Both the position numbers and the translations under genes were made by a program. The notes beneath the pieces are model-generated. The model saw nothing but the letters and a program-made list of their open reading frames with translations, had not been told where the DNA came from and searched no databases. Below, piece after piece: positions 29,150 through 42,103 of a stretch of 64,000 nt of DNA. The first letter of the stretch is position 1. Every line of letters begins with the position of its first letter. The DNA is from Thermodesulfobacteriota bacterium (lineage in GTDB: Bacteria; Desulfobacterota; Desulfobacteria; Desulfobacterales; SURF-7), in contig JBMORA010000009.1 in NCBI GenBank assembly GCA_049320885.1, positions 192,001-256,000 of the forward strand, read 5' to 3'.

Positions 29150-29419
29150 TCACCCCCACATGGTTCGAAACCCTTTTCCGCCGGCCGGCCATTCAAATAC
29201 GATTGCTCCCGGCTCGCAAACATACCAGCAGGCACCGCACTCCATGCATTTTTCCAGGCTTTTGATGAAAGCCTTTTTGTCCCGCAGCGCAAAGCAACCG
29301 CCTAGACAGACCTTCAGGCAATTGCCGCAGCCGATGCAGCTATCGCTGGCGATCCGGATAAACTCGCCGGTGTCTGCCACCCATTCGACGCCCGGTATCT
29401 CGGCAAACTGTTGTACCAT
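29150..29419 (-). CDS. FixX-like 2x[4Fe-4S] ferredoxin
   Basis: CIGCGNC...C and CMECGAC...CE, WPAGGKG tail; start ATG 29419. Confidence 0.85.
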   Translation of the reverse strand: MVQQFAEIPGVEWVADTGEFIRIASDSCIGCGNCLKVCLGGCFALRDKKAFIKSLEKCMECGACWYVCEPGAIVFEWPAGGKGFRTMWG

Positions 29420-29421
29420 GA

Positions 29422-31110
29422 TCACTCGCTCCCTGATGACTGCGCTTCGAAAACGGAAGGATCGGACTGGACAATCCGTTGAACCAGCGCCCGGCTCAGC
29501 GGCTCTAAACGCGGCTCGAAGCGTCGCTTCCATCGCAAATATACCGGTTCCACCACCGGCAGCAATAGCCGCATGATGGGGTTGGCCGCCGGGGAAAGGG
29601 GCAGAAGCAACGCAGCCGAAAGACGCAGCAGCGGGCCGCTGACCACAAGAATGGCGTCCAGGCCTTTGAAAAAACGTCCCAATTCCCTCGCGGCGCCAGT
29701 TTTTCTGGATCGGTTTGTATTGTCGGATTCGAAATGCCCATGATGCCAGTTGTAGTAGTACCGACAATACATGCGAAGCCATTTGCCGATCACGGCGGGA
29801 TCGCGCTTGACGAATTCCAGAACGATGCGCATCAGCGCTGAACTTCCGTACCTGCAGAAACCCAGGCCCCAGCCGTCATGGATATGCCGCCGGAGTCGTT
29901 TTTCGTCGCGGGTCGCCTGGGCATGGCGGAGATTGTACCGGTTCGTCGAGGTGATGCCCCATTGAATGATCGGATGCGCCAGGATGCGATCGTTGTACCG
30001 TCTGAGAAACTCCGCCGATGTGTCGTTCCGCCGGACCGCCTCGATGGCCACATCGGCGGCGATTTCGGCGGAAAACCAGGCCGCCGGTACGCCGTCGCAC
30101 AGTTCGGTATTTTCCAACCCGGCCGCATCGCCGATCAACAGGATTCCCGCGGCATAATTCGGCATCCGGCGCAGGCGCTCGTTCAGACCCACGAAAATTT
30201 CGAATCCGTCCCACATGCGGGCCCTCAGGCGGGTCAGGGGGGCTACCTGGTCCCGCCACCACGGCAGCTTGGCCGTGATGTTCTGGTGATAGGTTTTGAG
30301 GCTGGCGGCCACATTGTAAACCGGGCCGTCGTCGTTTCGCAGACACTGATCCTGCATCAGGTGCAGGCTGTCCCGGTAGGGCCAGACCATCAAGCCGTTT
30401 CCGTGGCCCAGTGGCGGCGCGATCTTTTGTTCGTCCCATCCCCAGCAAAAACGCAGGGAAAACCCGAATATCCGGTCGATATCCTGCTTGTCCATATCGT
30501 ACACATAGACATCCGCCAGGGAAATGGTGTCCGGAGGATATTTTTCCCGGATACCGGCTTTGATGGCCAGGAGCCCATGGGAACCTTCGGCGTCGATCAC
30601 GATTTTGGCACCGATGCGTTCGCCGAACTCGGTTTCGATGCCGCTTACCCGGCCGTTCTGGCGCGTCAAGGCGGTGATGGTGGTGGATGTCCGCAGTTCC
30701 GCGCCCGCCGCCACGGCCTGCTGCATTTCCCAGCGGCAGAAGTCCTTGCAGTAGGCATTGTAGCCCACGGCAAAGACCGGTGAAAACGGTTTCGGTACCA
30801 TCAGGGTGTCGTCAATGTGGATTTCGCCTCTGTCGATATCCGTGATGATATAGTTGACGATTCCGTCCACCGGTCGTTCAATGGGCGGATTCCCGTCCCG
30901 GATGAAATCCGGTCCGAACAAAAAACCGTGAAACGGGATGGTCAGGCCGGAAATGATTTTATCGCCGACCTCCCGGGACCGTTCGACGATCAGGGTTTTC
31001 AGGCCTGCGCGTGCGCATTTCCAGGCCGCTACGGCGCCGCCGAATCCGCCGCCGACAACGATTACGTCATAAGGGGTTGCCTGCTCTGGTTGCATTTCAA
31101 ATCCCGCCAA
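29422..31110 (-). CDS. FixC/geranylgeranyl-reductase family FAD oxidoreductase
   Basis: GGGFGG, ERS..GDK, DAEG, IGDAAG; followed by FixX-like gene; long C-terminal extension; start 31110 or 31095. Confidence 0.8.
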   Translation of the reverse strand: MAGFEMQPEQATPYDVIVVGGGFGGAVAAWKCARAGLKTLIVERSREVGDKIISGLTIPFHGFLFGPDFIRDGNPPIERPVDGIVNYIITDIDRGEIHIDDTLMVPKPFSPVFAVGYNAYCKDFCRWEMQQAVAAGAELRTSTTITALTRQNGRVSGIETEFGERIGAKIVIDAEGSHGLLAIKAGIREKYPPDTISLADVYVYDMDKQDIDRIFGFSLRFCWGWDEQKIAPPLGHGNGLMVWPYRDSLHLMQDQCLRNDDGPVYNVAASLKTYHQNITAKLPWWRDQVAPLTRLRARMWDGFEIFVGLNERLRRMPNYAAGILLIGDAAGLENTELCDGVPAAWFSAEIAADVAIEAVRRNDTSAEFLRRYNDRILAHPIIQWGITSTNRYNLRHAQATRDEKRLRRHIHDGWGLGFCRYGSSALMRIVLEFVKRDPAVIGKWLRMYCRYYYNWHHGHFESDNTNRSRKTGAARELGRFFKGLDAILVVSGPLLRLSAALLLPLSPAANPIMRLLLPVVEPVYLRWKRRFEPRLEPLSRALVQRIVQSDPSVFEAQSSGSE

Positions 31111-31356
31111 TTATGTTACCAATTGTTTATAAAATATTACCAAACAGTAAAGTTTGCTATAATACCATCGATGAAATGTCAAACCAAAAAAACCGCCATT
31201 GCCTGGATCACTTGGAAGCATTTTGAAACGGCGGGCTGCAGGAAAGGCGGCAAAACAGGAAAAGAATCTTTACCGCCGGGCCAAAGTGAGTGTATGAATG
31301 GTAGGCCGCGATTGCGGCCATTGATGTAACCGAAAAACACGGGATAACCATCCGGG

Positions 31357-32070
31357 ATGGACAAGATCGAATTACGCAAACAGGCGCTGCAACATCGGAA
31401 GCGCAATGAAAAACAGCTCCGGGTCGCGGGGATTCTCGGCGCAGCGCAAGCCGTATTCCTGAAGAAGGGTTACCACAATGCCACGATGGACGACATCGCG
31501 CTGGCCGCCGGGCTTTCCAAGCCGACGCTGTACCGGTATTTCAACGGCAAGGGGCATTTGTTTTTTTCCTTCATAGAAGCGATCATCGATGTCATCCACG
31601 AAGAGATTTCCGCCATCGACCGGCAATTGAAAAGCCGGGATTTCAAATCCGGAAAAGCATTCATTCGGGCCCATTTCGATGCGCTTTTCCGCATCTACCG
31701 AAAGTCGCCGGAGGCTTTCCGTCTGGTGAATCTCATCAGCGAATCCGGGGATTACAAAGCCCTGAATGACCGGTACCGTTCGATCATTACGGAAAAAATG
31801 CAAGTCAACGTCAACGAAGGGCGGGCGGTTTTTTCAACCGCCATGCGGCAGGGCTTGATTCAGCGCCATGACGTCGAGGCGATTGTCGATCTGATCTACG
31901 GATTTTTCATCGGTCCGATCCAGGCATTCCATATGTCCACCCAGATCCAGAATGGTTTTTCCGAACCGGATGCCGTGGATGCGGCCCTGGCCCATCGCAT
32001 CGAGCTCGTGGTGGATATTCTCGGTAAAGGCTTGTCGAACACGACAATATTAGAAGAGGAGGGGGTATGA
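31357..32070 (+). CDS. TetR-family regulator
   Basis: VFLKKGYHNATMDDIALAAGLSKPTLYRYFNGK. Confidence 0.93.
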   Translation: MDKIELRKQALQHRKRNEKQLRVAGILGAAQAVFLKKGYHNATMDDIALAAGLSKPTLYRYFNGKGHLFFSFIEAIIDVIHEEISAIDRQLKSRDFKSGKAFIRAHFDALFRIYRKSPEAFRLVNLISESGDYKALNDRYRSIITEKMQVNVNEGRAVFSTAMRQGLIQRHDVEAIVDLIYGFFIGPIQAFHMSTQIQNGFSEPDAVDAALAHRIELVVDILGKGLSNTTILEEEGV

Positions 32071-32663
32071 AAGCGATCGGCATCAACGCCAGTCCGCGGA
32101 AAAACGGCAATACCCAGACCCTGGTGGCGGCGGTTCTCCAGGGTGCTGCGGAAAACCGGGCGGAAACGCGTCTGGTCAATTTGCGGGAACTCGCGATCAA
32201 CGGGTGTCTGGGATGTGAGGGCTGTAAGAAGCAGATCGGCAAGTGCGCGCAGAAAGACGATCTCACCCCGTTGCTGCAGGAGCTGGCGGACTATGACGCC
32301 ATCGTTCTGGGAACGCCGGTTTACTGGTTTCATGTCAGCGCCCAATTTAAAATGCTGGTGGATCGGCTCTACTGTTTTTTGGATTTTGGCAGAGATCCGC
32401 AGACGGGTGAAGACTATTACCGCTTCGTGTTTCCCGCGGGCAAGAAATTCGTTATCATCGTTTCCCGCGGCGATGCAGAGCCGCCGGGAATGTTTCCCCA
32501 GTTTTACCGGCAGCTCGACGAATGGCTCAACGTGATTCCGCTTTCCTTGAACGCCGGACAAGTTGAATTGCTTCATCAGTATGGCGCGAACGTTGACCGA
32601 AACGCGGCGAGAAGCGATTCCGCTCTTATGGAAAAGGCCCTGTCGCTCGGGCGCAGGCTGTAA
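32067..32663 (+). CDS. Iron-sulfur flavoprotein / flavodoxin-family protein
   Basis: ASPRKNGNT, CLGCEGC...C, GTPVYW, KMLVDRL. Confidence 0.88.
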   Translation: MKAIGINASPRKNGNTQTLVAAVLQGAAENRAETRLVNLRELAINGCLGCEGCKKQIGKCAQKDDLTPLLQELADYDAIVLGTPVYWFHVSAQFKMLVDRLYCFLDFGRDPQTGEDYYRFVFPAGKKFVIIVSRGDAEPPGMFPQFYRQLDEWLNVIPLSLNAGQVELLHQYGANVDRNAARSDSALMEKALSLGRRL

Positions 32664-32826
32664 ATGGCCATGGCGTTGGGCAAAATGCGGGTAGGTGGCG
32701 GATTAAGCACCCTGGCACGAAAACTCAACACTCGTCAAATACTGCTGTGACATGGTATAAGATCCATGGGCAACCAATGAAAGCCCTGTCGATGTCCGCT
32801 TTTCTCAATCATTGAGGTGCAGCGCC

Positions 32827-33963
32827 ATGACCTATTGTCTGATGGATGGAAACGAGGCCGTGGCCCGGGCCGCCATGGCGTCGGGTTGCCGGTTTTTTGC
32901 AGGGTATCCCATCACGCCGGCCACGGGAATTCTGAACAGCATGCTGGCCCTGCTGCCGCCGGCAGGCGGCGTTTGCCTGCAGGGAGAGGATGAAATCGCC
33001 TCCATCGGCTACTGCCTGGGAGCCTCCATGGCCGGGATGAAGGTCATGACCGCCACCTCGGGACCCGGCATCAGTTTGTACAGCGAACAGATTTCATTCG
33101 CCATCGGCAGCGAGATTCCCATTGTCATCGTCGATGTGCAGCGCCTGGGGCCTTCCACCGGCTCCGCCACCCGCGGAGCCGACGGCGATATTCAGTTTCT
33201 GCGCTGGGGCAACAGCGGCGGTATGCCGGTGATCGTGCTGGCTCCGGTGGATGTCCAGGATTGCTATGAACTGACGGTTCAGGCCTTCAATCTGGCGGAA
33301 ATCCATCGCTGCCCGGTGTTCATCGCCTCCAACAAGGAAGTGGCCATGACCCGGGAAAGCCTCGATACGGATATTCTAAAAATCCCGGAGATTGTCCGGC
33401 GTCGGGCGCCCAAGGGGGAGAAACCTTATCTGCCCTTTACCGTGGAAACAGGCCGGTATGTCCCGGACTTCCGGCCCATGGGCGGCAATGTCATTGTCCG
33501 GCAGACTTCGTCCACTCACGGACCGGACGGGCACATCACAGCGGATCCGGCCGAAATCGCCGCCAACCGGAAGCGCCTGATGGAAAAACTGGCAGATGCA
33601 CCCGATTTCTTCTCGTTCGAGCAACAGCCGGACCGTCCGGAAACCGATCCGGTGGTGATCACCTACGGCGTCACGGCCAGGGCTGCCCGGGCGGCTGCGA
33701 AGGAATTGCGGGAAGAAGGCATCCATGTGGCGTTGTTGATTCTGAAAAGCCTTTGGCCGGTGCCTGGAACAACGATTGTGCGATATACCAGGAATGCGGC
33801 CGCAATTGCCGTTATCGAGATGAACCTCGGCCAGTATGTCCACGAGATCAAACGTCTGGTCCCCGACAGGCCGGTGCGGTTCTTCGGAAGAATGGACGGG
33901 GCACTGATCACCCCGCAGCAAATCAAGGAGGTCATCCGCCATGCCGGACAGTCTGCTGAATAA
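32827..33963 (+). CDS. 2-oxoacid:ferredoxin oxidoreductase alpha subunit
   Basis: GNEA, AGYPITP, EDEIA, TATSGPG, QRLGPSTG, EMNLGQ. Confidence 0.92.
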   Translation: MTYCLMDGNEAVARAAMASGCRFFAGYPITPATGILNSMLALLPPAGGVCLQGEDEIASIGYCLGASMAGMKVMTATSGPGISLYSEQISFAIGSEIPIVIVDVQRLGPSTGSATRGADGDIQFLRWGNSGGMPVIVLAPVDVQDCYELTVQAFNLAEIHRCPVFIASNKEVAMTRESLDTDILKIPEIVRRRAPKGEKPYLPFTVETGRYVPDFRPMGGNVIVRQTSSTHGPDGHITADPAEIAANRKRLMEKLADAPDFFSFEQQPDRPETDPVVITYGVTARAARAAAKELREEGIHVALLILKSLWPVPGTTIVRYTRNAAAIAVIEMNLGQYVHEIKRLVPDRPVRFFGRMDGALITPQQIKEVIRHAGQSAE

Positions 33964-35239
33964 AAGTCGGCCGCCGGTTTTCTGCCCTGGATGCAGCCAT
34001 GAGAAGGTCGTCTACGCCTTGAATACGGCTTTCATGAACATGGGGCTGTCCGGCGAACGAATCGCCATCGTCAGCGATATCGGCTGTTCCGGCCTGTTCG
34101 ACACGTTTTTCAACACCCATGCCTTTCACGGGCTCCACGGTCGGGCCCTGACCTATGCCGCGGGCCTGAAGCTGGCCTGCCCGGAACTGACGGTGGTGGT
34201 GACCATGGGCGACGGAGGCCTGGGTATCGGCGGGGCCCATCTGCTGGCCGCCTGCCGCCGCAACCTGGATATCACCCTGCTGGTGCTGAACAACCTGAAT
34301 TACGGCATGACCGGCGGGCAATGCTCGCCGACGACGCCCCAGGACGCCCAGGTGGACTCCGGCTTTTTGAACCGATTGGAAACGCCCCTGGCGGTGACGG
34401 AACTGGCCTTCTGCGCCGGCGCCGGCTATGTCGCCGACTGTTCGAGTTATCAGAAAAATCTTCCGGAAGAGCTGGAACGGGCCATCCGCTTTGAAGGCTT
34501 TGCGGTGATGGATATCCGCGGGATCTGCCCGGGACGCTATACCCGCAACAACAAACGTTCCCCCCGCTCCATCGACCAGGAAATTGCCTGCCTGCCCAAA
34601 CAGCCCCCAATCCGCGCCAGGGCGGGAAGAAAAGAATACGGACGTCATTACCGGGAGCTCAGCGCAGCGCAGAAACCGGCCGCCCCGCCCATCGGGGTGG
34701 CGATCCGGCATCGCCCGCCTTCGACCATCCGGCAGGAAATCATCATCCTCGGCGATGCCGGCCAGCGGGTGCTAACGGCGGGTGAGATTCTCTGCCTGGC
34801 CGGCATGAGCGCCGGCCTCCGTGTAACCCAGAAAAACGATTACCACATTACGGTGCTGCGGGGGCCGTCCATCAGTGAGATCGTTCTGTCACCCGATGAT
34901 ATCGACTATACAGGGATTGTCCGGCCCGGGGTCGTTATCGCCATCGGCCAGGAAGGGGTGAATGCGCGCCGCAACCTGTTCGCCGGTCTGGATGCCGAGA
35001 GCCTTGTCGTGAAAGCACCGGGCATCCAGCTGCCGCCGCATCCGGGAACGGACATTCCAGCGGATTTTTCCAAACACGGCGTCAAACGCGAGGACTGGGC
35101 GCTCGCTTCACTGTGGGTCATGGCCCGGCTTGAAAAGGCAATTCATGCGGAAATGCTGCGCTCGGCGCTTTCGACACGTTTCCACGGCGAGGCTTTGGAA
35201 TCGGCGCTCGCATTGGGTGGACCGGATTTTTGGGCATAG
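33941..35239 (+). CDS. 2-oxoacid:ferredoxin oxidoreductase beta subunit fused to a gamma-like domain
   Basis: FCPGC, SDIGC, HGRA, GDGG, NNLNYGMTGGQ; C-terminal ILGDAGQRV...TQKNDY...LRGP gamma pattern. Confidence 0.85.
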   Translation: MPDSLLNKSRPPVFCPGCSHEKVVYALNTAFMNMGLSGERIAIVSDIGCSGLFDTFFNTHAFHGLHGRALTYAAGLKLACPELTVVVTMGDGGLGIGGAHLLAACRRNLDITLLVLNNLNYGMTGGQCSPTTPQDAQVDSGFLNRLETPLAVTELAFCAGAGYVADCSSYQKNLPEELERAIRFEGFAVMDIRGICPGRYTRNNKRSPRSIDQEIACLPKQPPIRARAGRKEYGRHYRELSAAQKPAAPPIGVAIRHRPPSTIRQEIIILGDAGQRVLTAGEILCLAGMSAGLRVTQKNDYHITVLRGPSISEIVLSPDDIDYTGIVRPGVVIAIGQEGVNARRNLFAGLDAESLVVKAPGIQLPPHPGTDIPADFSKHGVKREDWALASLWVMARLEKAIHAEMLRSALSTRFHGEALESALALGGPDFWA

Positions 35240-35254
35240 ACCCGCAATTCCCGC

Positions 35255-36034
35255 TCAGGTGGTCAATGCCTGGATCCGCATCATGAAGTCGCCGATATCC
35301 CGGCCGTATTCCGGCGATCCCTCCACCGATAGATAGCCTTTGCGCACGGCCTCCACCATATTGACATCGTTCAGAATAATGGGCAGGGCGCCCTTGATCC
35401 CGTTGAATTTCATGTGCACGAACGGATGGCGCCGGGAATAGAAACCCCGTCCGGATTTTGATTTCCCTGCCTTTACGCGCAAATAGGCGGCGATATCCGG
35501 CTCGCCGTCCACGGACATCTGGTAAATCCGTTCGGGTTGCTTGGCGGTCCATTTGGCCATTTCCGGGTCGCCGCCCTTGTTATACTGGCTGAGGGCCGTG
35601 GTGATCATGTAAACGGTCAGCTTGACTTTCATGCGCTGCTTGAAGGGATCCTTGGGCCGCGCGTTGGGCATGAGGACCTTCAGGTAGAGGAGCAGGGCGA
35701 AGACCTTGATCAACAGACCGATTTTCCAAAGCCCCTTGATGACCGGGATCACCGGTTTGCCGGCCAACATGGCGTTCAGTTTGGCGACGCTGCCGAAGGC
35801 GAAGGTGATGTCCGGTTTGGGGCTTACTCCCTGGACGATTTCCAGTTCGCCGTTCTGAAACCGCAGAAAAGCGCCGACATCGCCGGCCGGGTCTTTGGCA
35901 ATGAACTGGACGTCGGCCGTAACCCCTTCAAATTTCCGTTTCATGGCCGGATCGTCGGACAGGACCACCTTCATCACCGGAAACAGGGCCCGCAGAAAGA
36001 TCCGGGCGCTCATCAACTCAGTCGGAGTAGCCAT
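35255..36034 (-). CDS. Tandem SCP2-like lipid-binding protein B
   Basis: Start ATG 36034 next to the transketolase stop; SCP2-like patterns (PDITFAF; VNMVEAVRKGYLSVEG); shares LNxMxAGK...KG with 39325-40086. Confidence 0.6.
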   Translation of the reverse strand: MATPTELMSARIFLRALFPVMKVVLSDDPAMKRKFEGVTADVQFIAKDPAGDVGAFLRFQNGELEIVQGVSPKPDITFAFGSVAKLNAMLAGKPVIPVIKGLWKIGLLIKVFALLLYLKVLMPNARPKDPFKQRMKVKLTVYMITTALSQYNKGGDPEMAKWTAKQPERIYQMSVDGEPDIAAYLRVKAGKSKSGRGFYSRRHPFVHMKFNGIKGALPIILNDVNMVEAVRKGYLSVEGSPEYGRDIGDFMMRIQALTT

Positions 36035-36035
36035 A

Positions 36036-37046
36036 TCACACCTCATCTTCCCAGTCGTCGTCTTCTTCAAAGTCCTTGCCCATGACTTCCCGCACCTTCT
36101 TGATGATGCCGTCGGTATCGAATTGATAATGGCTGTACAGATCCTCGGGATAGCCGACGATGCAGAAGCAATCGGGGATGCCCACCTTTTCGAAGGCGCA
36201 GCCTTTTCCAGAGGCGGCGATGATGTCGGCCACGGCGCTGCCGAGTCCGCCCTGGATGTTGTGATCCTCGAAGGTGATGATCCGCCGGGTTTCCCGGATG
36301 GCTTCCTGAATCGCCTGCTCGTCAATGGGTTTGATGGTGTGCATGTTGAGCACCCGGACGCTCAGGCCGTCATTCTGTTTCAGAAATTTGGCGGCTTCGA
36401 GCGCCTGCAGGACGGTGACCCCGCAGCAGATCAGGGTGATATCCGTGCCCGGATGCATCAGCACGGCCTTGCCGATCTGGAAACCATAGTCATCGGTTTC
36501 ATAGCAGCGCGGTTCGAATCCCCGTCCGATGCGGATATATACCGGGCCCGGGTAATCGACGCAGGCCTTGACCGCATTGGCGGTTTCCACCCCGTCGGCC
36601 GGCGCGATCACGGTCATGTTGGCCAAAGCCCGCATGACAGCCAGATCCTCGGTGCAGTGGTGGGTGGTTCCGGCGGCGCCGAAGGAAGTGCCGGCATGGG
36701 TGGCGATGATTTTTACATTCAGGTTTTGATAGCAGATGTCGGTACGCACCTGCTCGGCGGCTCGCAGGGTGGTGAACACCGCCATGGTGGAAACGAAGGG
36801 CAACAGGCCGGATTTGGCCAGCCCGGCGGCCATGCCGAAGAGATTCTGTTCGGCGATGCCGACATTGAAAAAGCGTTCCGGAAATTTGTCCGCAAATTTT
36901 CCGATTTTGGTGGATTTGGCCAGATCCGCGGACAGCCCCACGATTTTGGGATACTTCTCTCCCAGCACACAAAGAACCTCGCCATAGATGTCCGCCTGGG
37001 TCATGGTGTTGGCGTCATATACATTCCAGGTTAAACCTTCGGTCAT
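36036..37046 (-). CDS. Transketolase, C-terminal (pyrimidine-binding) subunit
   Basis: ADLAKST, NVGIAEQN, GTTHH, PVYIR, HTIKPID, EDH..GGLGS. Confidence 0.93.
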   Translation of the reverse strand: MTEGLTWNVYDANTMTQADIYGEVLCVLGEKYPKIVGLSADLAKSTKIGKFADKFPERFFNVGIAEQNLFGMAAGLAKSGLLPFVSTMAVFTTLRAAEQVRTDICYQNLNVKIIATHAGTSFGAAGTTHHCTEDLAVMRALANMTVIAPADGVETANAVKACVDYPGPVYIRIGRGFEPRCYETDDYGFQIGKAVLMHPGTDITLICCGVTVLQALEAAKFLKQNDGLSVRVLNMHTIKPIDEQAIQEAIRETRRIITFEDHNIQGGLGSAVADIIAASGKGCAFEKVGIPDCFCIVGYPEDLYSHYQFDTDGIIKKVREVMGKDFEEDDDWEDEV

Positions 37047-37061
37047 ATACCCCCCTTTGTG

Positions 37062-37096
37062 GAATTACGAATTACGAATCGGGAATTACGAATGAT
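37062..37096. repeat. Heptanucleotide tandem repeat (GAATTAC)x~5
   Basis: GAATTAC GAATTAC GAATCGG GAATTAC GAATGAT between the two transketolase genes. Confidence 0.7.
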
Positions 37097-37110
37097 GGAT
37101 GGAAGTCGTT

Positions 37111-37947
37111 TCAGCCGTACATGCGGTCCACGGACTGCTTGGCTTTCTCCCGGGTTTCCGTATCCAGGCCGCCGTAATGCCACTTGACTTCGTTTTCCAT
37201 GAACTCGACGCCTTTGCCTTTGACCGTGTGGGCGATGATCACCACCGGCGCGGAAGTTTCCGAAAGGGCGTAGTCGATGGCGCCGCAAAGTTCCCGGTAA
37301 TCGTGACCGTTGACTTCCTGGACGATGAAGCCGAAGGCTTTCCATTTATCGGCGAAGGGTTCCAGGCCCATGATCTGCTCGGTGGTACCGTCGATCATCA
37401 GTTTGTTGCGGTCCACGAAGGTCAGGAGATTGGTCAGTTTATAGTGACGGATGGCCATGGCCGCCTCCCAGTTGGTGCCCTCGTTGCACTCCCCGTCGCC
37501 GAGAATGCAATAGGTCCGCCAGTTTTTTTTCTGCACCCGGGCGCCCAGGGCCAGCCCGGCGGCGATGGGCAGACCGTGGCCCAGGGAGCCGGTGGAAACG
37601 TCGACTCCCTTGACCTTCAGACAATCCAGATGCATGCCGAAGGGGGATTTGAACTTGTTGAATTCCTGCAGCTGGTCGAAGTCGAAATAGCCCTTGCGGG
37701 CCAGAAGCGGTGCGTACCCGACCCCGCCGTGCCCCTTGCTGAGTACCATGCGGTCGCGGTCTTCCCAGGCCGGATTGTCGGGTTTGACGTTCAGATACTT
37801 GTAATAGAGTGTCACCAATATCTCCACCATGCTCATGGCGCCGCCGATATGGGCGCCGCCGGCCCAGTAAGTGATATCGATGATGTCTTTCCGCATCTGG
37901 CGTGCGACGGCCGATAGCCGGGTGATGTCCTGATCGGTGATGGGCAT
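37111..37947 (-). CDS. Transketolase, N-terminal (ThDP-binding) subunit
   Basis: AHIGG, DRMVLSKGH, STGSLGHG, GDGECNEG...N, TVKGKG, WH; start ATG 37947 with GGAGG RBS. Confidence 0.94.
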   Translation of the reverse strand: MPITDQDITRLSAVARQMRKDIIDITYWAGGAHIGGAMSMVEILVTLYYKYLNVKPDNPAWEDRDRMVLSKGHGGVGYAPLLARKGYFDFDQLQEFNKFKSPFGMHLDCLKVKGVDVSTGSLGHGLPIAAGLALGARVQKKNWRTYCILGDGECNEGTNWEAAMAIRHYKLTNLLTFVDRNKLMIDGTTEQIMGLEPFADKWKAFGFIVQEVNGHDYRELCGAIDYALSETSAPVVIIAHTVKGKGVEFMENEVKWHYGGLDTETREKAKQSVDRMYG

Positions 37948-38014
37948 ATGTTCCTCCTGTTGAACCGGTTGTTCGTGGGTTCGCGGCGCCGATCCGGAGC
38001 GCCGTGTTTTTCGG

Positions 38015-39289
38015 TTAATGGCCGTATTTTTTTTCAATCGCCTGAAAGGCTTCAGCCGCGATGGACAAGGTTTGCTCGATATCCGCGTCCGTATGGGCCG
38101 TGGACACGAACCAGTTGTGATGCGGGGTGAAATAGGCCCCGCGCTTGGTGCATTCCGCGCACCATTCCTGATGCAACATCAGGCTTTCGTCATCGGTGAT
38201 CCGCAGATACGGCATGGCCGGCGCGCCTGTTATTTTCAGGTTGTAGCCGTGCGCGGCGGCGGCGGCCACCAGACCGCTGCACAGCTTTTTGCCGATGTCG
38301 CGCATTTTTTCCGGGCCGTTGACGGACTGGAGTTCCTTCAGTGTCGCCAGGGCCGCGGCCATGGGCTGGGACTGGAACCAGTAACTGCCGGTGTAAAAAA
38401 CCCGGGCGGCGATACCCTTCAGCGACTCCCTGCCCATGAGGGCCGACAGGGGATAGCCGTTGGCGATGGCCTTGCAGAAACAGACCAGGTCGGGCTGAAA
38501 GCCGAAATAATGGTGGGAGCCTTGCATGTCCATCCGGAAACCGTGGCGGATGTCGTCGCTGATGAGAAGGATGCCGTTTTGACGGCATACGGTTTCCATC
38601 CGCGGCCAATACCCATCCACCGGCAGGGCGTTGTCCGCAAAGGCGGGCACGTGGTAGGGTGTGGCGATGAAGGCGGCGATTTCCCCGGGATGCTCCTGGA
38701 TGGCGCGTTCAAATGCCGCGGTGTCGTTCCAGGGAATCCGGATGATATTGGTCCAGTCTTCGTCAATCAGGCCGTGGTGGCCGGGGGCCTGCATCCAGGG
38801 GGCTACCCCGTGATAGCCGCCGTCGATCATGACGATTTTTTTTCGGGCGGTTGCGTCCCTGGCCACCATGATGGCGTAATTGGTCACGTCGCCGCCGTTT
38901 TTGGCGAAAAAAGCCCAGTCCATGCCACTCACCAGGTTGACCAGATGCTCGGCCAGCTCCACCATGACCGGAGAGGCGCCGGTGGTGCAGTTGCCCGCCG
39001 CTACCTGCCCGGCGGCGGCGGCGTCCACCACCGGATGGTTATATCCCAGCACCATGGGGCCGTAAGCGCACATGTAATCGATGAATTCGTTGCCGTCCAC
39101 GTCCCAGAAGCGGGCCCCGGAGGCTTTGGCGGTATAGAAAGGGTAATCCGTGGCCGGAATCAAGGGTGCCGGGCTGAAATGACCGTAAATGCCGCCGGGG
39201 ATCACCCTGGCGGCGCGTTTGAACCATTCCTGTGATTTGGGGTATTGATAGGTTTGCATATCCAGGGTCCTTCCGGGAAAAATTTCCAT
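38015..39289 (-). CDS. Class III PLP aminotransferase, GSA-aminomutase-like, FumI-type
   Basis: VIPGGIYGH, IDYMCAYGP, KNGGD, YHG, DDIRHGFR, PLP Lys in FCKAIANG, TGSYWF; start 39289 or 39259. Confidence 0.88.
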   Translation of the reverse strand: MEIFPGRTLDMQTYQYPKSQEWFKRAARVIPGGIYGHFSPAPLIPATDYPFYTAKASGARFWDVDGNEFIDYMCAYGPMVLGYNHPVVDAAAAGQVAAGNCTTGASPVMVELAEHLVNLVSGMDWAFFAKNGGDVTNYAIMVARDATARKKIVMIDGGYHGVAPWMQAPGHHGLIDEDWTNIIRIPWNDTAAFERAIQEHPGEIAAFIATPYHVPAFADNALPVDGYWPRMETVCRQNGILLISDDIRHGFRMDMQGSHHYFGFQPDLVCFCKAIANGYPLSALMGRESLKGIAARVFYTGSYWFQSQPMAAALATLKELQSVNGPEKMRDIGKKLCSGLVAAAAAHGYNLKITGAPAMPYLRITDDESLMLHQEWCAECTKRGAYFTPHHNWFVSTAHTDADIEQTLSIAAEAFQAIEKKYGH

Positions 39290-39324
39290 GTCACTCGCTT
39301 GAAAGCCGAAATGGGCCTCCGATG

Positions 39325-40086
39325 TCAGGACAAATACAGGGGGATCCGGTCCAGCACCAGACTCATGGCGTCCAGCATGGGGGTCTGGCCTTTGATTACC
39401 ACATCGCCCGCGGCAATGGCGCTGAACGCATCCATCTTTCCGTTCAAAAAGGCGTTGGCCACCTGTACGTTCCGCATGAACATGCAGGCCATGGGCTTGT
39501 CGACATCCCCGCGTCCCGCCTCGATGGCACCGTTGTTAAAAAACACATGAACCGCCGGCCCTTCCGGCAGGATTTTCATCAAAATTGGGCCGTTGCGCAT
39601 GTGACCCACCGCCAGCCGGGCGATGGGATCCAGCTTCGCCAGCTCTGGCACGGCAAAGACGGCCGTGTTCATGGTCAGGCGGGTATTCATGGTCAGATAG
39701 AATTCATCCGCCAGCAATTTTTCCGTGGGCTTGAGAAAATGTTCCAGCCGGGCCGTGAGCGTGGCGAAATCTTTAGCGAGAAACGGCAGCTTGGTGAAGC
39801 CCTTCAGCGGAATGGGGTTCCCCTTGCCCGCCATCATGCGGTTCAGATGGGCCGGGGAGAGGAAGAACAGTTTTACCGTTGGAGCGGGAATGATTCCACG
39901 ACCCACGCGGCAGCCGCCGTTTTCAAAGACAATGTGCGCCTGCGGTCCGTTCCAGACGCTGAACTGGATGGATATGCGCCAACTGGCCGTAAAGGCTTTC
40001 ATTTCCGGATCCCAGGCAACCACATCCTCGAGGTTCTGCAGGACCGCGTATAAATTCAGGTTGGATTTGATCAATTCGGCCGTCAT
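39325..40086 (-). CDS. Tandem SCP2-like lipid-binding protein A
   Basis: AFLNGKMDAFSAIAAGDVVIKG is a classic SCP2 C-terminus; an N-terminal repeat shows a similar pattern; start ATG 40086. Confidence 0.7.
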   Translation of the reverse strand: MTAELIKSNLNLYAVLQNLEDVVAWDPEMKAFTASWRISIQFSVWNGPQAHIVFENGGCRVGRGIIPAPTVKLFFLSPAHLNRMMAGKGNPIPLKGFTKLPFLAKDFATLTARLEHFLKPTEKLLADEFYLTMNTRLTMNTAVFAVPELAKLDPIARLAVGHMRNGPILMKILPEGPAVHVFFNNGAIEAGRGDVDKPMACMFMRNVQVANAFLNGKMDAFSAIAAGDVVIKGQTPMLDAMSLVLDRIPLYLS

Positions 40087-40100
40087 GTGAAAATGCCCCC

Positions 40101-40129
40101 TTGCAAAGCGGTTTCGCCCGGAGTATAGT
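40101..40129 (+). promoter_or_regulatory. sigma70-type promoter of tetR-ald
   Basis: TTGCAA-N17-TATAGT. Confidence 0.6.
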
Positions 40130-40138
40130 AGGCATGTG

Positions 40139-40156
40139 AGTGAGTGCTTGCTCACT
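40139..40156. promoter_or_regulatory. Putative TetR operator
   Basis: Palindrome AGTGAG-N6-CTCACT between the divergent promoters. Confidence 0.65.
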
Positions 40157-40242
40157 ATTACCCAGGCCGGGGTGAAAAAGTCAAGGGAAAAGATCCCCAA
40201 CCCGTTTCACCCCTGTATTTCGGTTACGTTGCGGATCTCAGG

Positions 40243-40947
40243 ATGAAAGATATGACCCGGGAAAAAACCCAGTTCCAGAACGGCGGCTACACCGTTAAAA
40301 AGCATTACACGGAAACATTTGAAAAGATCGCTGAGGATAAGCGCGCCACCATTTTGCGGGTCGCGGCCGCCGAATTCGCCGCCAACGGCTTCAGGACCGC
40401 CAATATCAATGTGATTGCCCGCAAGGCGGGCATCAGTATCGGCTCCATGTATAAATATTTTACGTCGAAGGAAAATCTGTTTCTGACGATCATCGATCAC
40501 GGCTACCAGGTGCTGGCCGACGTACTGGCGGAGGTGGATTTGAATGCCGGCGACATCTTCGATAAAATCGAGCGGCTGCTGCGGGCGGCCCAGCAATATT
40601 CCCGAAAATACCCGGAGCTGAACCAGATCTACGTGGATATCGCCTCCGAAGGGTTGTCGCATCTGTCGGTGATGCTTTCGCGAAAGATGGAGTCCATTTC
40701 CGCCGCGTTTTACCGGAGCATGCTTTCCCTGTCCAAGCAGAAGGGGCTGGTGGATGCGGCAGCGGATGATTTCGTCACCGCCTTTTGTCTGGATAACCTG
40801 ATCCTGATGCTGCAATACTCGTATACAACGGATTATTATCGGGAGCGGATGAAAATATTCGCCGGTGAGGATGCCCTGGAAGACGATGAACGGATCATCC
40901 GGGGCATGATGCGGTTCATCCGCGGTGCGCTGGCGCCCCGTTCCTGA
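40243..40947 (+). CDS. TetR-family regulator
   Basis: EFAANGFRTANINVIARKAGISIGSMYKYFTSKE; start 40243 or 40252. Confidence 0.92.
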   Translation: MKDMTREKTQFQNGGYTVKKHYTETFEKIAEDKRATILRVAAAEFAANGFRTANINVIARKAGISIGSMYKYFTSKENLFLTIIDHGYQVLADVLAEVDLNAGDIFDKIERLLRAAQQYSRKYPELNQIYVDIASEGLSHLSVMLSRKMESISAAFYRSMLSLSKQKGLVDAAADDFVTAFCLDNLILMLQYSYTTDYYRERMKIFAGEDALEDDERIIRGMMRFIRGALAPRS

Positions 40948-40996
40948 CTGGGCAGCGTCGTTCCCCATCGTAACGTCAATATAAGGAGGACTTGTC

Positions 40997-42103
40997 ATGA
41001 AAATCGGAGTGCCGAATGAGATCAAGATCAGGGAAAGACGTGTGGCGCTGACGCCTGCCGGTGCGTTTGCCCTCGCGGAAAAAGGCCATGAGGTGTTTGT
41101 GGAACGGAGTGCCGGCATCGGCTCCGGAATCATGGATGACGACTACAAACGCATGGGTGCGAGCATCCTGAATACCGCGGACGAAGTCTGGGGGGCGGCG
41201 GACATGATCATCAAGGTGAAGGAACCCATCGATCCGGAGTTCGACCGCATGAAACCCGGCCAGATATTGTTCACCTATCTCCATCTGGCGGCGGACGAGG
41301 CCCTGACCAGAAAACTGCTGGAACGCGACATCATCGGGATTGCCTATGAAACCATTCAGCTGAGTGACGGCAGTCTGCCCCTGTTGACCCCCATGAGCGA
41401 GGTCGCCGGCCGCCTGGCGGTGCAGGTGGGCTGTAATTGTCTGGAAACACGCAACGGCGGCAAGGGGCTGCTGTTGTCCGGCGTTCCGGGCGTGGGGCCT
41501 GCCAAGGTAACCATCCTGGGAGGCGGCATCGCCGGAGTCAACGCGGCTCAGCTGGCCATGGGCATGGGCGCCTATGTGACCATTCTGGATATCAACCTGA
41601 ACCGGCTGCGCCAGCTGGACCATTTGTTTCATTCCCATGTGGTCACCCTCATGTCCAATCCCACCAACATCGAGGATTGCATCGCTCAATCCGATTTGGT
41701 GATCGGCACGGTGTTGATTCCAGGCGCCCGGGCTCCCAAGCTGATAAAAAGGAGCTATCTGCAGAAGATGGAACCGGGTTCGGCCCTGGTGGATGTGGCC
41801 ATCGATCAGGGCGGCTGCGCCGAAACCAGCCGGCCCACCACCCACGATGACCCGATGTTCATTGTCGACAGCATCGTGCATTACTGCGTAACCAACATGC
41901 CCGGCCAGGTGCCCCGCACCTCCACCTTCGCCCTGACCAACGCCACCCTGCCCTATGCGTTGGCACTGGCCAATAAGGGGCTCAAAAAAGCCCTGCATTC
42001 CGACCCGGCCCTGGCCAAGGGACTGAACGTCTACAGGGGCAAGCTCACCCGGAAGGAAGTGTCGGAGGCGGTGAATATCCCGTTTGAGGAAGTAAAATTG
42101 TAA
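40997..42103 (+). CDS. ald: Alanine dehydrogenase
   Basis: [57 protein letters not shown]. Confidence 0.96.

Follow-up and report, generated by a model that had tools for sequence, protein, structure and literature searches.

A conserved transaminase–transketolase operon with two tandem-SCP2 proteins as a candidate module for sphingoid-base breakdown in Desulfobacterales

Organization of the operon

The window analyzed here is a 64,000-nucleotide stretch from a Thermodesulfobacteriota bacterium of the order Desulfobacterales (assembly GCA_049320885.1, contig JBMORA010000009.1, positions 192,001 to 256,000), and the system in question is a minus-strand operon that encodes a class III pyridoxal phosphate (PLP) aminotransferase, the two subunits of a split transketolase (TK) and two tandem-SCP2 proteins. 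We propose, with a probability of about 0.7, that it is a repressor-controlled catabolic module for sphingoid bases from scavenged ceramides, a reading in which every reaction is inferred from sequence comparison. The co-directional gene order is SCP2-like A (SCP2-A; 39325..40086, 253 aa), aminotransferase (38015..39259), TK N-terminal subunit (TK-N; 37111..37947, Pfam Transketolase_N), TK C-terminal subunit (TK-C; 36036..37046, Pfam Transket_pyr and Transketolase_C) and SCP2-like B (SCP2-B; 35255..36034, 259 aa). The true starts are at 40086, 39259, 37947, 37046 and 36034, and the intergenic gaps are 65, 67, 64 and 1 nt, so that SCP2-B begins 1 nt past the TK-C stop. Divergent from the operon, on the plus strand, are a TetR-family regulator (40243..40947, Pfam TetR_N; the start is uncertain, 40243 or 40252) and an accessory alanine dehydrogenase gene, ald (40997..42103; TIGR00518, 533 bits against a cut-off of 392). 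An 18-bp palindrome between SCP2-A and tetR (40139..40156, no strand) is the predicted TetR operator. As the source genome (5.6 Mb, 98% complete; G000 in locus names) carries its own HemL, a full-length TK and DXS elsewhere, the five-gene operon is not a housekeeping set.

Conservation and spread

Conservation was assessed in the best 80 of 219 relatives found with the aminotransferase in genome contigs and the best 80 of 166 found with SCP2-A in metagenomes. Sixty of the genome loci, with at least 3.2 kb of downstream sequence, were informative for the five-gene order (the other 20 were too short), and the complete set in the same order was present in 49/60 of these and in 19/27 informative metagenome loci. 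The arrangement is therefore more than chance, and the original prediction of a five-gene operon divergent from tetR-ald holds at the coordinates above. Carriers among the best 80 of 219 relatives belong to Desulfobacterales and kin, Spirochaetota, Hydrogenedentota and Myxococcota; cultured carriers are Desulfatibacillum alkenivorans, Desulfosarcina widdelii and two Desulfoluna species, and among named relatives the aminotransferase is closest (89%) to one from a Desulfobacterales genome.

SCP2-A is present in 79/80 genome loci that were picked by the aminotransferase alone, and the aminotransferase follows SCP2-A in 71/80 metagenome loci. TetR matches occur in 29/80 genome loci. A true Ald (at least 53% identity) adjoins the operon in 13/80, behind tetR in eight and directly upstream of SCP2-A in five; three further matches are weak (28–30%), one of them in a locus with a transhydrogenase beta gene alongside. 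Ald had been put forward as a partner of the pathway: its identity stands, but with 13 of 80 loci its role is an accessory one. Beside ald, a glycyl-radical enzyme and its activase were seen in 7/80 loci (L004:4443-6842 and six others); the enzyme reached no NCBIfam cut-off and is restricted to close Desulfobacterales, and is therefore treated as inherited synteny. In the window, positions 29150-35239 hold a FixC/geranylgeranyl-reductase-like flavoprotein and a ferredoxin that are transcribed divergently from genes for a TetR, a flavodoxin-like protein and a 2-oxoacid:ferredoxin oxidoreductase pair; this group is not kept beside the operon in related loci.

The predicted operator marks a neutral ceramidase and a FadL-like channel

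A matrix for the operator was trained on 19 sites from operon leaders of other loci, with ceramidase genes excluded. Three sites above 18 bits were found in the source genome, and none in each of three order-3 Markov genomes. The top site (C9:73410, 27.6 bits) lies about 180 bp upstream of a neutral ceramidase, the second is the leader of the five-gene operon (25.5 bits), and the third (C65:3531, 21.4 bits) is upstream of a FadL-like gene followed by a metallophosphoesterase; a smaller matrix of five sites gave the same top three. Among held-out leaders, the operator was present in 22/22 with a TetR orthologue and 27/100 without one, compared with 0/440 shuffles, and this co-occurrence of regulator and site suggests that TetR binds the 18-bp palindrome. 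TetR orthologues adjoin either the operon or, in genomes G034, G181, G174 and G137 and in loci L095 and L130, the ceramidase. Among 40 ceramidase loci taken from genomes other than the source, the operator precedes the ceramidase in 9/27 that belong to operon-bearing genomes (16.7–27.2 bits) and, weakly, in 2/13 from genomes without the operon (15.2 and 15.4 bits). An exact-pattern search found nothing in 5/10 genomes, and the strict pattern proved noisy, with four hits (L243-L246) in or beside unrelated genes; a promoter scan stayed at chance level (2 found, 3.0 expected). At the third site (G000:C65:29-3457, L221), the operator-marked FadL-like channel is followed by a 685-aa lipoprotein-like metallophosphoesterase, which could strip phosphate head groups off sphingolipids.

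The ceramidase itself (G000:C9:71150-73231) lies outside the window, 155 kb from the operon; it has a signal-peptide-like N-terminus and is a full-length match to its family (PF04734, 556 bits; PF17048, 158 bits; both over cut-off). A ceramidase gene occurs within the operon's own locus in 2/80 metagenome loci and 0/80 genome loci: in L130 it stands behind tetR, in the place held by ald in the window, and in L095 it is the first gene on the strand that continues into SCP2-A and the aminotransferase. The L130 enzyme scores 508 bits to the Pseudomonas aeruginosa neutral ceramidase and aligns end to end with PDB 2zws. Across 201 genomes of the class, PF04734 was present in 15/26 with SCP2-B versus 6/175 without it, and among the FadL-positive genomes in 14/20 versus 5/90; these counts treat related genomes as independent, so their significance is overstated. 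FadL as a lifestyle control was linked weakly to the operon (20/26 versus 90/175), and a FadL-family gene follows SCP2-B in L029, L067 and L130. The PF00282 search of the source genome revealed no sphingosine 1-phosphate (S1P) lyase, its sole match being PanP, which passes its own cut-off and reaches 40 bits against S1P lyase structures. In several genomes the ceramidase is followed by an Lgt-like membrane protein, as at G000:C9:70364-71146, L095:5938-6759, L130:5129-5923 and L185:4826-5641.

The aminotransferase forms a sister clade to FumI-like enzymes

The aminotransferase (Pfam Aminotran_3) has the class III PLP fold, with a presumed catalytic Lys263 (codon 38471-38473) that is kept in 80/81 aligned members of the family. 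Its best solved-structure relative is FumI of Sphingopyxis sp. MTA144 (PDB 6hbs, 335 bits; the best HemL reaches 167 bits), and all six FumI sequence blocks named in the original prediction are visible in the alignment to 6hbs. FumI converts hydrolysed fumonisin B1 (HFB1) and pyruvate to 2-keto-HFB1 and alanine (PMC3136697). A HemL identity was rejected: the protein scores 211 bits on TIGR00713 (hemL) against a cut-off of 527, and HemL falls outside its clade. The tree contained 35 rows (21 of the 81 family members, 7 plasmid homologues and 7 others), with FumI itself outside it and represented by FumI-like proxies at 588–598 bits, and with long outgroup branches flagged. In it, the family forms a clade (100/100) that is sister to the FumI-like proteins (96/90), and the genome's own HemL is split off by a 100/100 branch. 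The separation from HemL that had been anticipated is thus borne out, with the link to FumI drawn at subfamily level only.

The family does not lie inside the FumI clade, showing 39–43% identity to the FumI-like proxies, and is not orthologous to FumI; HFB1 transaminases assayed so far share about 60–75% identity among themselves (PMC9858248), and two plasmid proteins (588 and 598 bits) are much nearer to FumI. The predicted reaction resembles that of FumI: pyruvate accepts a 2-amino group that neighbours a 3-hydroxyl in a long-chain substrate (PMC3136697). The substrates differ in that HFB1 bears a C1 methyl, and no sphinganine assay is reported for FumI in the available part of the source (PMC3136697). 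By analogy with FumI, the enzyme would move the 2-amino group of a sphingoid base to pyruvate.

The split transketolase has lost the D469/R91 pair

Both TK subunits have the split TK 6yak as their closest structural relative (259 bits for TK-N and 277 bits for TK-C). Residues were mapped on Escherichia coli TktA and counted in 61 TK-N and 55 TK-C sequences. The equivalents of H26, H66, H100, H261, H473, E411, D155, N185, S385, H461 and R520 are kept, together with the GDG...N motif that binds thiamine diphosphate (ThDP), and His33, His73, Asn97, His106 and His257 of TK-N are invariant in 61/61. The mark of canonical sugar-phosphate TKs, D469 with its salt-bridge partner R91 (PMC5073344), is replaced at both positions in the window TK: the R91 equivalent is Asn97 in TK-N (Asn in 61/61), and the D469 equivalent is Ala125 in TK-C (codon 36672-36674), a position occupied by Ala (51) or Gly (4) and never by Asp in the 55 sequences. 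Of the residues that bind phosphate (R358, S385, H461 and R520; PMC11387542), the last three are kept in 55/55, whereas the R358 equivalent is Ala18 in TK-C (codon 36993-36995; Ala 43, Arg 9 and Ser 2 of 55). D469 is retained in the genome's ordinary TK, and in the alignment the Carboxydothermus hydrogenoformans split TK (6yak/6yaj) keeps the equivalents of both R358 and D469. Two control split TK-like proteins (L179 and L180) also lack D469, so its loss marks specialised TKs generally and not this family alone.

Residue D469 selects the stereoisomer, and H100 and H473 are hydroxyl contacts (PMC11387542). The E. coli variants D469A and D469T have better activity on propanal, on which the wild-type enzyme reaches an enantiomeric excess of only 58% (S) and D469Y one of 68% (R) (PMC3657141). 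Taken together with the loss of D469, these mutant data suggest that the TK site is built for an aldehyde without a 2-hydroxyl, and that stereoselectivity there is changeable. Natural sphinganine gives a 3R ketol after 2-deamination, and the caveat raised at the outset, that canonical TKs prefer 3S, is softened but not removed, ten wild-type split TKs having kept (S)-selectivity (PMC13663882).

Unlike the C. hydrogenoformans enzyme, the operon TK has an SCP2 partner gene and a conserved acidic C-terminal tail on TK-C (36039..36071, minus strand), in which Phe326, Glu327, Trp332, Asp334 and Glu335 are invariant in 48/48. SCP2-B is basic (38 K+R versus 23 D+E), and the tail is a candidate docking peptide that possibly binds it. 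A remoter split TK (52%) with Gly at the D469 position was observed in G203 (L228:7446-14198) as part of another specialised TK pathway; its operon also encodes two Zn-type alcohol dehydrogenase-like proteins, a short-chain dehydrogenase/reductase and an acyl-CoA ligase.

Split TKs are commonly active on sugars, and the operon could in principle belong to an ordinary pathway for amino sugars or amino-polyols, in which case its association with SCP2 genes and a ceramidase would be incidental. FumI-like relatives adjoin four-carbon sugar-acid kinases, and an FGGY kinase adjoins the operon in 4/80 loci (xylulokinase-like in L031, L038 and L041, and another in L069). The statement that the operon lacks a sugar kinase therefore holds for the window and as a rule, with these four exceptions, and homologous clusters do not always carry such kinases. 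However, D469, the selector for 2-hydroxy aldehydes, is lost in 55/55 sequences, SCP2-A accompanies nearly every aminotransferase locus (79/80), and the operator in the source genome marks the ceramidase and FadL and no sugar genes; a sugar pathway is accordingly extremely improbable.

Tandem-SCP2 proteins and the nature of the substrate

SCP2-A scores 31.6 bits on Pfam SCP2, above the cut-off, and SCP2-B 20.8 bits, just below it. Their predicted models have pLDDT values of 94.9 and 93.7, respectively; the best matches of A are SCP2 structures (Z 10.7-9.4), and the Foldseek matches of B are SCP2 domains and the SCP2-like domains of alkylsulfatases. Each shows two repeats of the SCP2 secondary-structure pattern, and the two are full-length paralogues (hhalign 99.35%). 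The models and fold searches thus agree with the original description of two lipid-binding proteins: both have the predicted SCP2 alpha/beta fold and are predicted long-chain lipid carriers. Where the operon is split (L226 and L227), TK-N, TK-C and SCP2-B form their own unit, and the retention of A with the aminotransferase and of B with the TK suggests one carrier per enzyme. With 464 clusters at E up to 1e-10, the tandem-SCP2 family is a large one whose members are mostly unnamed, and it extends to Clostridia and Saccharospirillum (clusters P0139, P0161 and P0166).

The same chemistry might act on a different lipid amine, namely an N-acyl amino alcohol opened by a ceramidase-family or amidohydrolase enzyme. 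Candidates are the sulfonolipid base capnine, 1-deoxy or methylated bases, and N-acyl-serinol, in which case serinol would give dihydroxyacetone and TK cleavage would then release formaldehyde. Many of the linked PF04734 genes are divergent (24–28% identity to the source genome's copy); an amidohydrolase carries the operator in G297, and one that is 39% identical follows SCP2-B in L010. Furthermore, a FLVCR-like gene of the major facilitator superfamily (MFS), of the choline/ethanolamine transporter family, runs divergently from the operon in both L146 and L149, and one lies in a neighbouring unit of L069, and the C1 methyl of HFB1 points the same way. We nevertheless consider another lipid amine unlikely. 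A pair of tandem-SCP2 proteins together with FadL points to a long chain and so away from serinol; the equivalents of H100 and H473 are invariant, as would suit a donor with a C1-hydroxyl; and the source genome's ceramidase is a full family match at 556 bits.

Proposed route and its weighing

In the sphingoid-base route that we favour, the neutral ceramidase would split ceramide into a fatty acid and a sphingoid base, with the FadL-like channel aiding uptake; family membership was computed for both proteins, and their co-regulation is predicted from the operator. The aminotransferase, helped by SCP2-A, would convert the base and pyruvate into a 1,3-dihydroxy-2-ketoalkane and alanine, as judged from FumI. 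The split TK, helped by SCP2-B, would then cut the C2–C3 bond. The product would be a fatty aldehyde shortened by two carbons, which for sphinganine is hexadecanal, with a glycolaldehyde unit retained on ThDP; this step is suggested by the retained catalytic residues together with the loss of the D469/R91 pair and, mostly, of R358. The C2 unit might be passed, most likely, to an aldose phosphate such as glyceraldehyde 3-phosphate and so to the pentose phosphate pathway, for which the kept S385, H461 and R520 equivalents speak, or might be released as glycolaldehyde. The aldehyde would be oxidised and then beta-oxidised, its oxidation pulling the reversible steps forward, and Ald would turn alanine back to pyruvate and free ammonium. 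The uptake channel, the signal-peptide-like ceramidase and aldehyde-oxidising genes near the module in three loci (L077, L224 and L227) favour breakdown over synthesis. The original proposal of sphingoid-base breakdown is thus supported by the operator at the ceramidase and FadL-like genes, the ceramidase linkage and co-occurrence, and the change of D469 to Ala or Gly, all of them sequence-level observations.

Several findings weigh against this assignment. No acceptor-recycling or aldehyde-oxidising gene is conserved inside the operon, 18/27 ceramidase loci of operon-bearing genomes have no operator, and 11/26 operon-bearing genomes of the class have no PF04734 match. The ceramidase link is weaker in a spirochaete order (18/35 versus 17/60 in 95 genomes), which includes a block of ceramidase-positive genomes without the operon; L029, L130 and G137 look near-identical and count as one, adding to the overstatement that relatedness brings to the co-occurrence counts. 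The 588- and 598-bit FumI relatives have dimethylformamidase-like, ABC, kinase or class II aldolase genes as neighbours, which are non-lipid contexts, and the FumI-like genes have no ceramidase, TK or SCP2 gene in eight annotated plasmid neighbourhoods (of 15 records); similarity to FumI consequently fixes the subfamily only and is no proof of a sphingoid substrate. For the TK, R358 is kept in 9/55 TK-C members, the E. coli D469T and D469S variants stay S-selective, with D469Y the only R-selective one among the tabulated single mutants (PMC3657141), and ten wild-type split TKs, which may include a relative of the operon TK, are all (S)-selective (PMC13663882).

Comparison with known systems

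Natural pairs of a TK-type enzyme and an aminotransferase are found in AziC5/C6 with AziC1 or AziC7 (azinomycin; the aminodiol DADH, also for vazabitide A) and in AniP/AniQ (anisomycin) (PMC9570651, PMC11387542). The azinomycin pair joins a non-hydroxylated aldehyde to give a 2-amino-1,3-diol, which is the proposed chemistry reversed (PMC9570651, PMC11387542). Compared by description and not by sequence, these pairs differ from the operon in being biosynthetic, in acting on small polar substrates and in having neither lipid-binding helpers nor a ceramidase link.

This precedent (PMC9570651) and the reversibility in principle of both steps would also accommodate ceramide biosynthesis or remodelling independent of serine palmitoyltransferase (SPT), in which the TK would extend a fatty aldehyde by a C2 unit, the product would be aminated to the 2-amino-1,3-diol by the aminotransferase at the expense of alanine supplied by Ald, and the ceramidase would run in reverse. 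Desulfobacterota are named among the sphingolipid producers of the euxinic Black Sea (PMC12619533), and no alpha-oxoamine synthase (AOS)-family gene of the source genome reaches an SPT cut-off. One AOS-family protein (G000:C27:78014-79756, L084:895-2637), with a 200-residue N-terminal extension, has SPT as its best structure match (216 bits, versus 202 for AONS/KBL), far below the SPT cut-offs. Synthesis nevertheless appears very unlikely: the predicted regulon includes a FadL-like channel of the outer membrane and a ceramidase whose N-terminus resembles a signal peptide, the patchy spread across lipid scavengers and the TetR-type repressor fit catabolism, and the nearby enzymes are aldehyde-oxidising, acyl-CoA reductases not being among those seen.

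Breakdown of sphingoid bases has a counterpart in the Pseudomonas SphR regulon, where a ceramidase is co-regulated with genes that metabolise the freed base, without S1P lyase (PMC11398299; PMC5150637). The Pseudomonas genes encode a cytochrome c (SphB), an oxidoreductase (SphC) and a PLP aldolase-like protein (SphD), whereas the operon combines a transaminase with a ThDP enzyme, SCP2 proteins and TetR and is found in lineages that are mostly anaerobic; by Pfam, none of the SphB, SphC and SphD families is present among the five operon genes, the rest of the genome not having been searched for them. The sphingosine kinase/S1P lyase route makes the same C2–C3 cut that is predicted here and gives the same fatty aldehyde (PMC7237492), but needs ATP and yields phosphoethanolamine. 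By analogy, the operon would work like the first step of FumI followed by AziC5/C6 in reverse, and would be organised like the Pseudomonas ceramidase-sphBCD regulon with other chemistry.

The full-text literature search, whose coverage left out most subscription papers, found no paper on a transaminase–transketolase route for sphingoid bases, and no anaerobic breakdown route for the sphingoid backbone is described in the literature searched. The original claim of an undescribed kinase- and S1P-lyase-independent route must however be narrowed: Pseudomonas SphBC metabolise sphingosine (PMC11398299), so such independence alone is not new, and what appears new is the use of transamination plus ThDP chemistry on a sphingoid base. 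If the assignment is correct, genes, a regulator site and cultured carriers can be named for anaerobic sphingoid breakdown, making it directly testable, and a ThDP-based, ATP-free C2–C3 cut would be added beside S1P lyase and SphBCD. It would also provide a function for the unannotated tandem-SCP2 family and correct the common misannotation of the aminotransferase as HemL. The TK would be a natural counterpart of D469 variants made by engineering, and a possible R-selectivity towards long aldehydes would be relevant to aminodiol synthesis. In Black Sea sediments, roughly one fifth of the lipid pool consisted of sphingolipids (PMC12619533).

Variant modules and related units

SCP2-A and the aminotransferase occur without the TK in 11/60 informative genome loci and 8/27 informative metagenome loci, and a distant SCP2–aminotransferase pair is present in the ceramidase-positive genome G188, where SCP2-B was not found. 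These cases would suit a purely detoxifying role, in which antimicrobial sphingoid bases are neutralised by the aminotransferase with SCP2-A, and another lipid ketol is the substrate of the TK with SCP2-B. That division is hardly to be expected, since the five-gene order is the majority form, G202, TK-less at its aminotransferase locus, carries TK-N, TK-C and SCP2-B elsewhere in two copies, and eight of the loci that lack the TK have an SCP2-E1alpha/beta ThDP fusion, or the E1beta end of one, next to the pair. The G188 pair (47%; L224:1413-8546) has no TK nearby and lies close to an aldehyde:ferredoxin oxidoreductase and an iron alcohol dehydrogenase.

The E1alpha/beta proteins of the eight loci adjoin SCP2-A and the aminotransferase in two arrangements, and the complete ones carry an SCP2-like N-terminal part, as judged from sequence likeness. 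E1alpha-E1beta fusions that bear this SCP2-like N-terminal part were seen at L107:8565-11237, L102:2754-5300 and G000:C28:28047-30575, and suggest a lipid-substrate ThDP enzyme; no E2/E3 gene was seen beside the fusion in G000. An acetoin-dehydrogenase-like cut of the ketol would fit such a protein. The full-length fusion is present in 9/201 genomes of the class, five of which lack both SCP2-B and the aminotransferase; a role as a strict stand-in for the TK was therefore rejected, and the fusion is supporting evidence at best.

A second operator-marked unit was observed in G297:C1:3267800-3278300 (L241:5849-16225) and in L069:779-8735. In both lineages it contains a class III aminotransferase, an FGGY kinase, one or more class II aldolases and a FLVCR-like MFS transporter. 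The G297 version also has a TetR paralogue and glutamate dehydrogenase, and that of L069 a HAD hydrolase and a FadL-like gene. The unit is a candidate for the handling of a 2-amino-1,3,4-triol such as phytosphingosine, or of another amino-polyol, in these two lineages only.

A broader and much more tentative picture, which we regard as possible but doubtful, is that of a widespread anaerobic sphingolipid-degradation regulon in which bases are transaminated to a ketol and then cut by interchangeable modules with an SCP2 carrier for each enzyme. In such a regulon the D469-less TK would serve 1-hydroxy bases, the SCP2-fused E1alpha/beta protein 1-deoxy bases, and the second aminotransferase with FGGY kinase, class II aldolase and glutamate dehydrogenase 4-hydroxy (phyto) bases; the whole would be a main sink for the large amount of sphingolipid in anoxic sediments, and the TK a natural R-selective long-chain enzyme. 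Finally, at L060:11245-11658 the TK genes have apparently been deleted, leaving a short open reading frame that begins as TK-N and finishes as SCP2-B.

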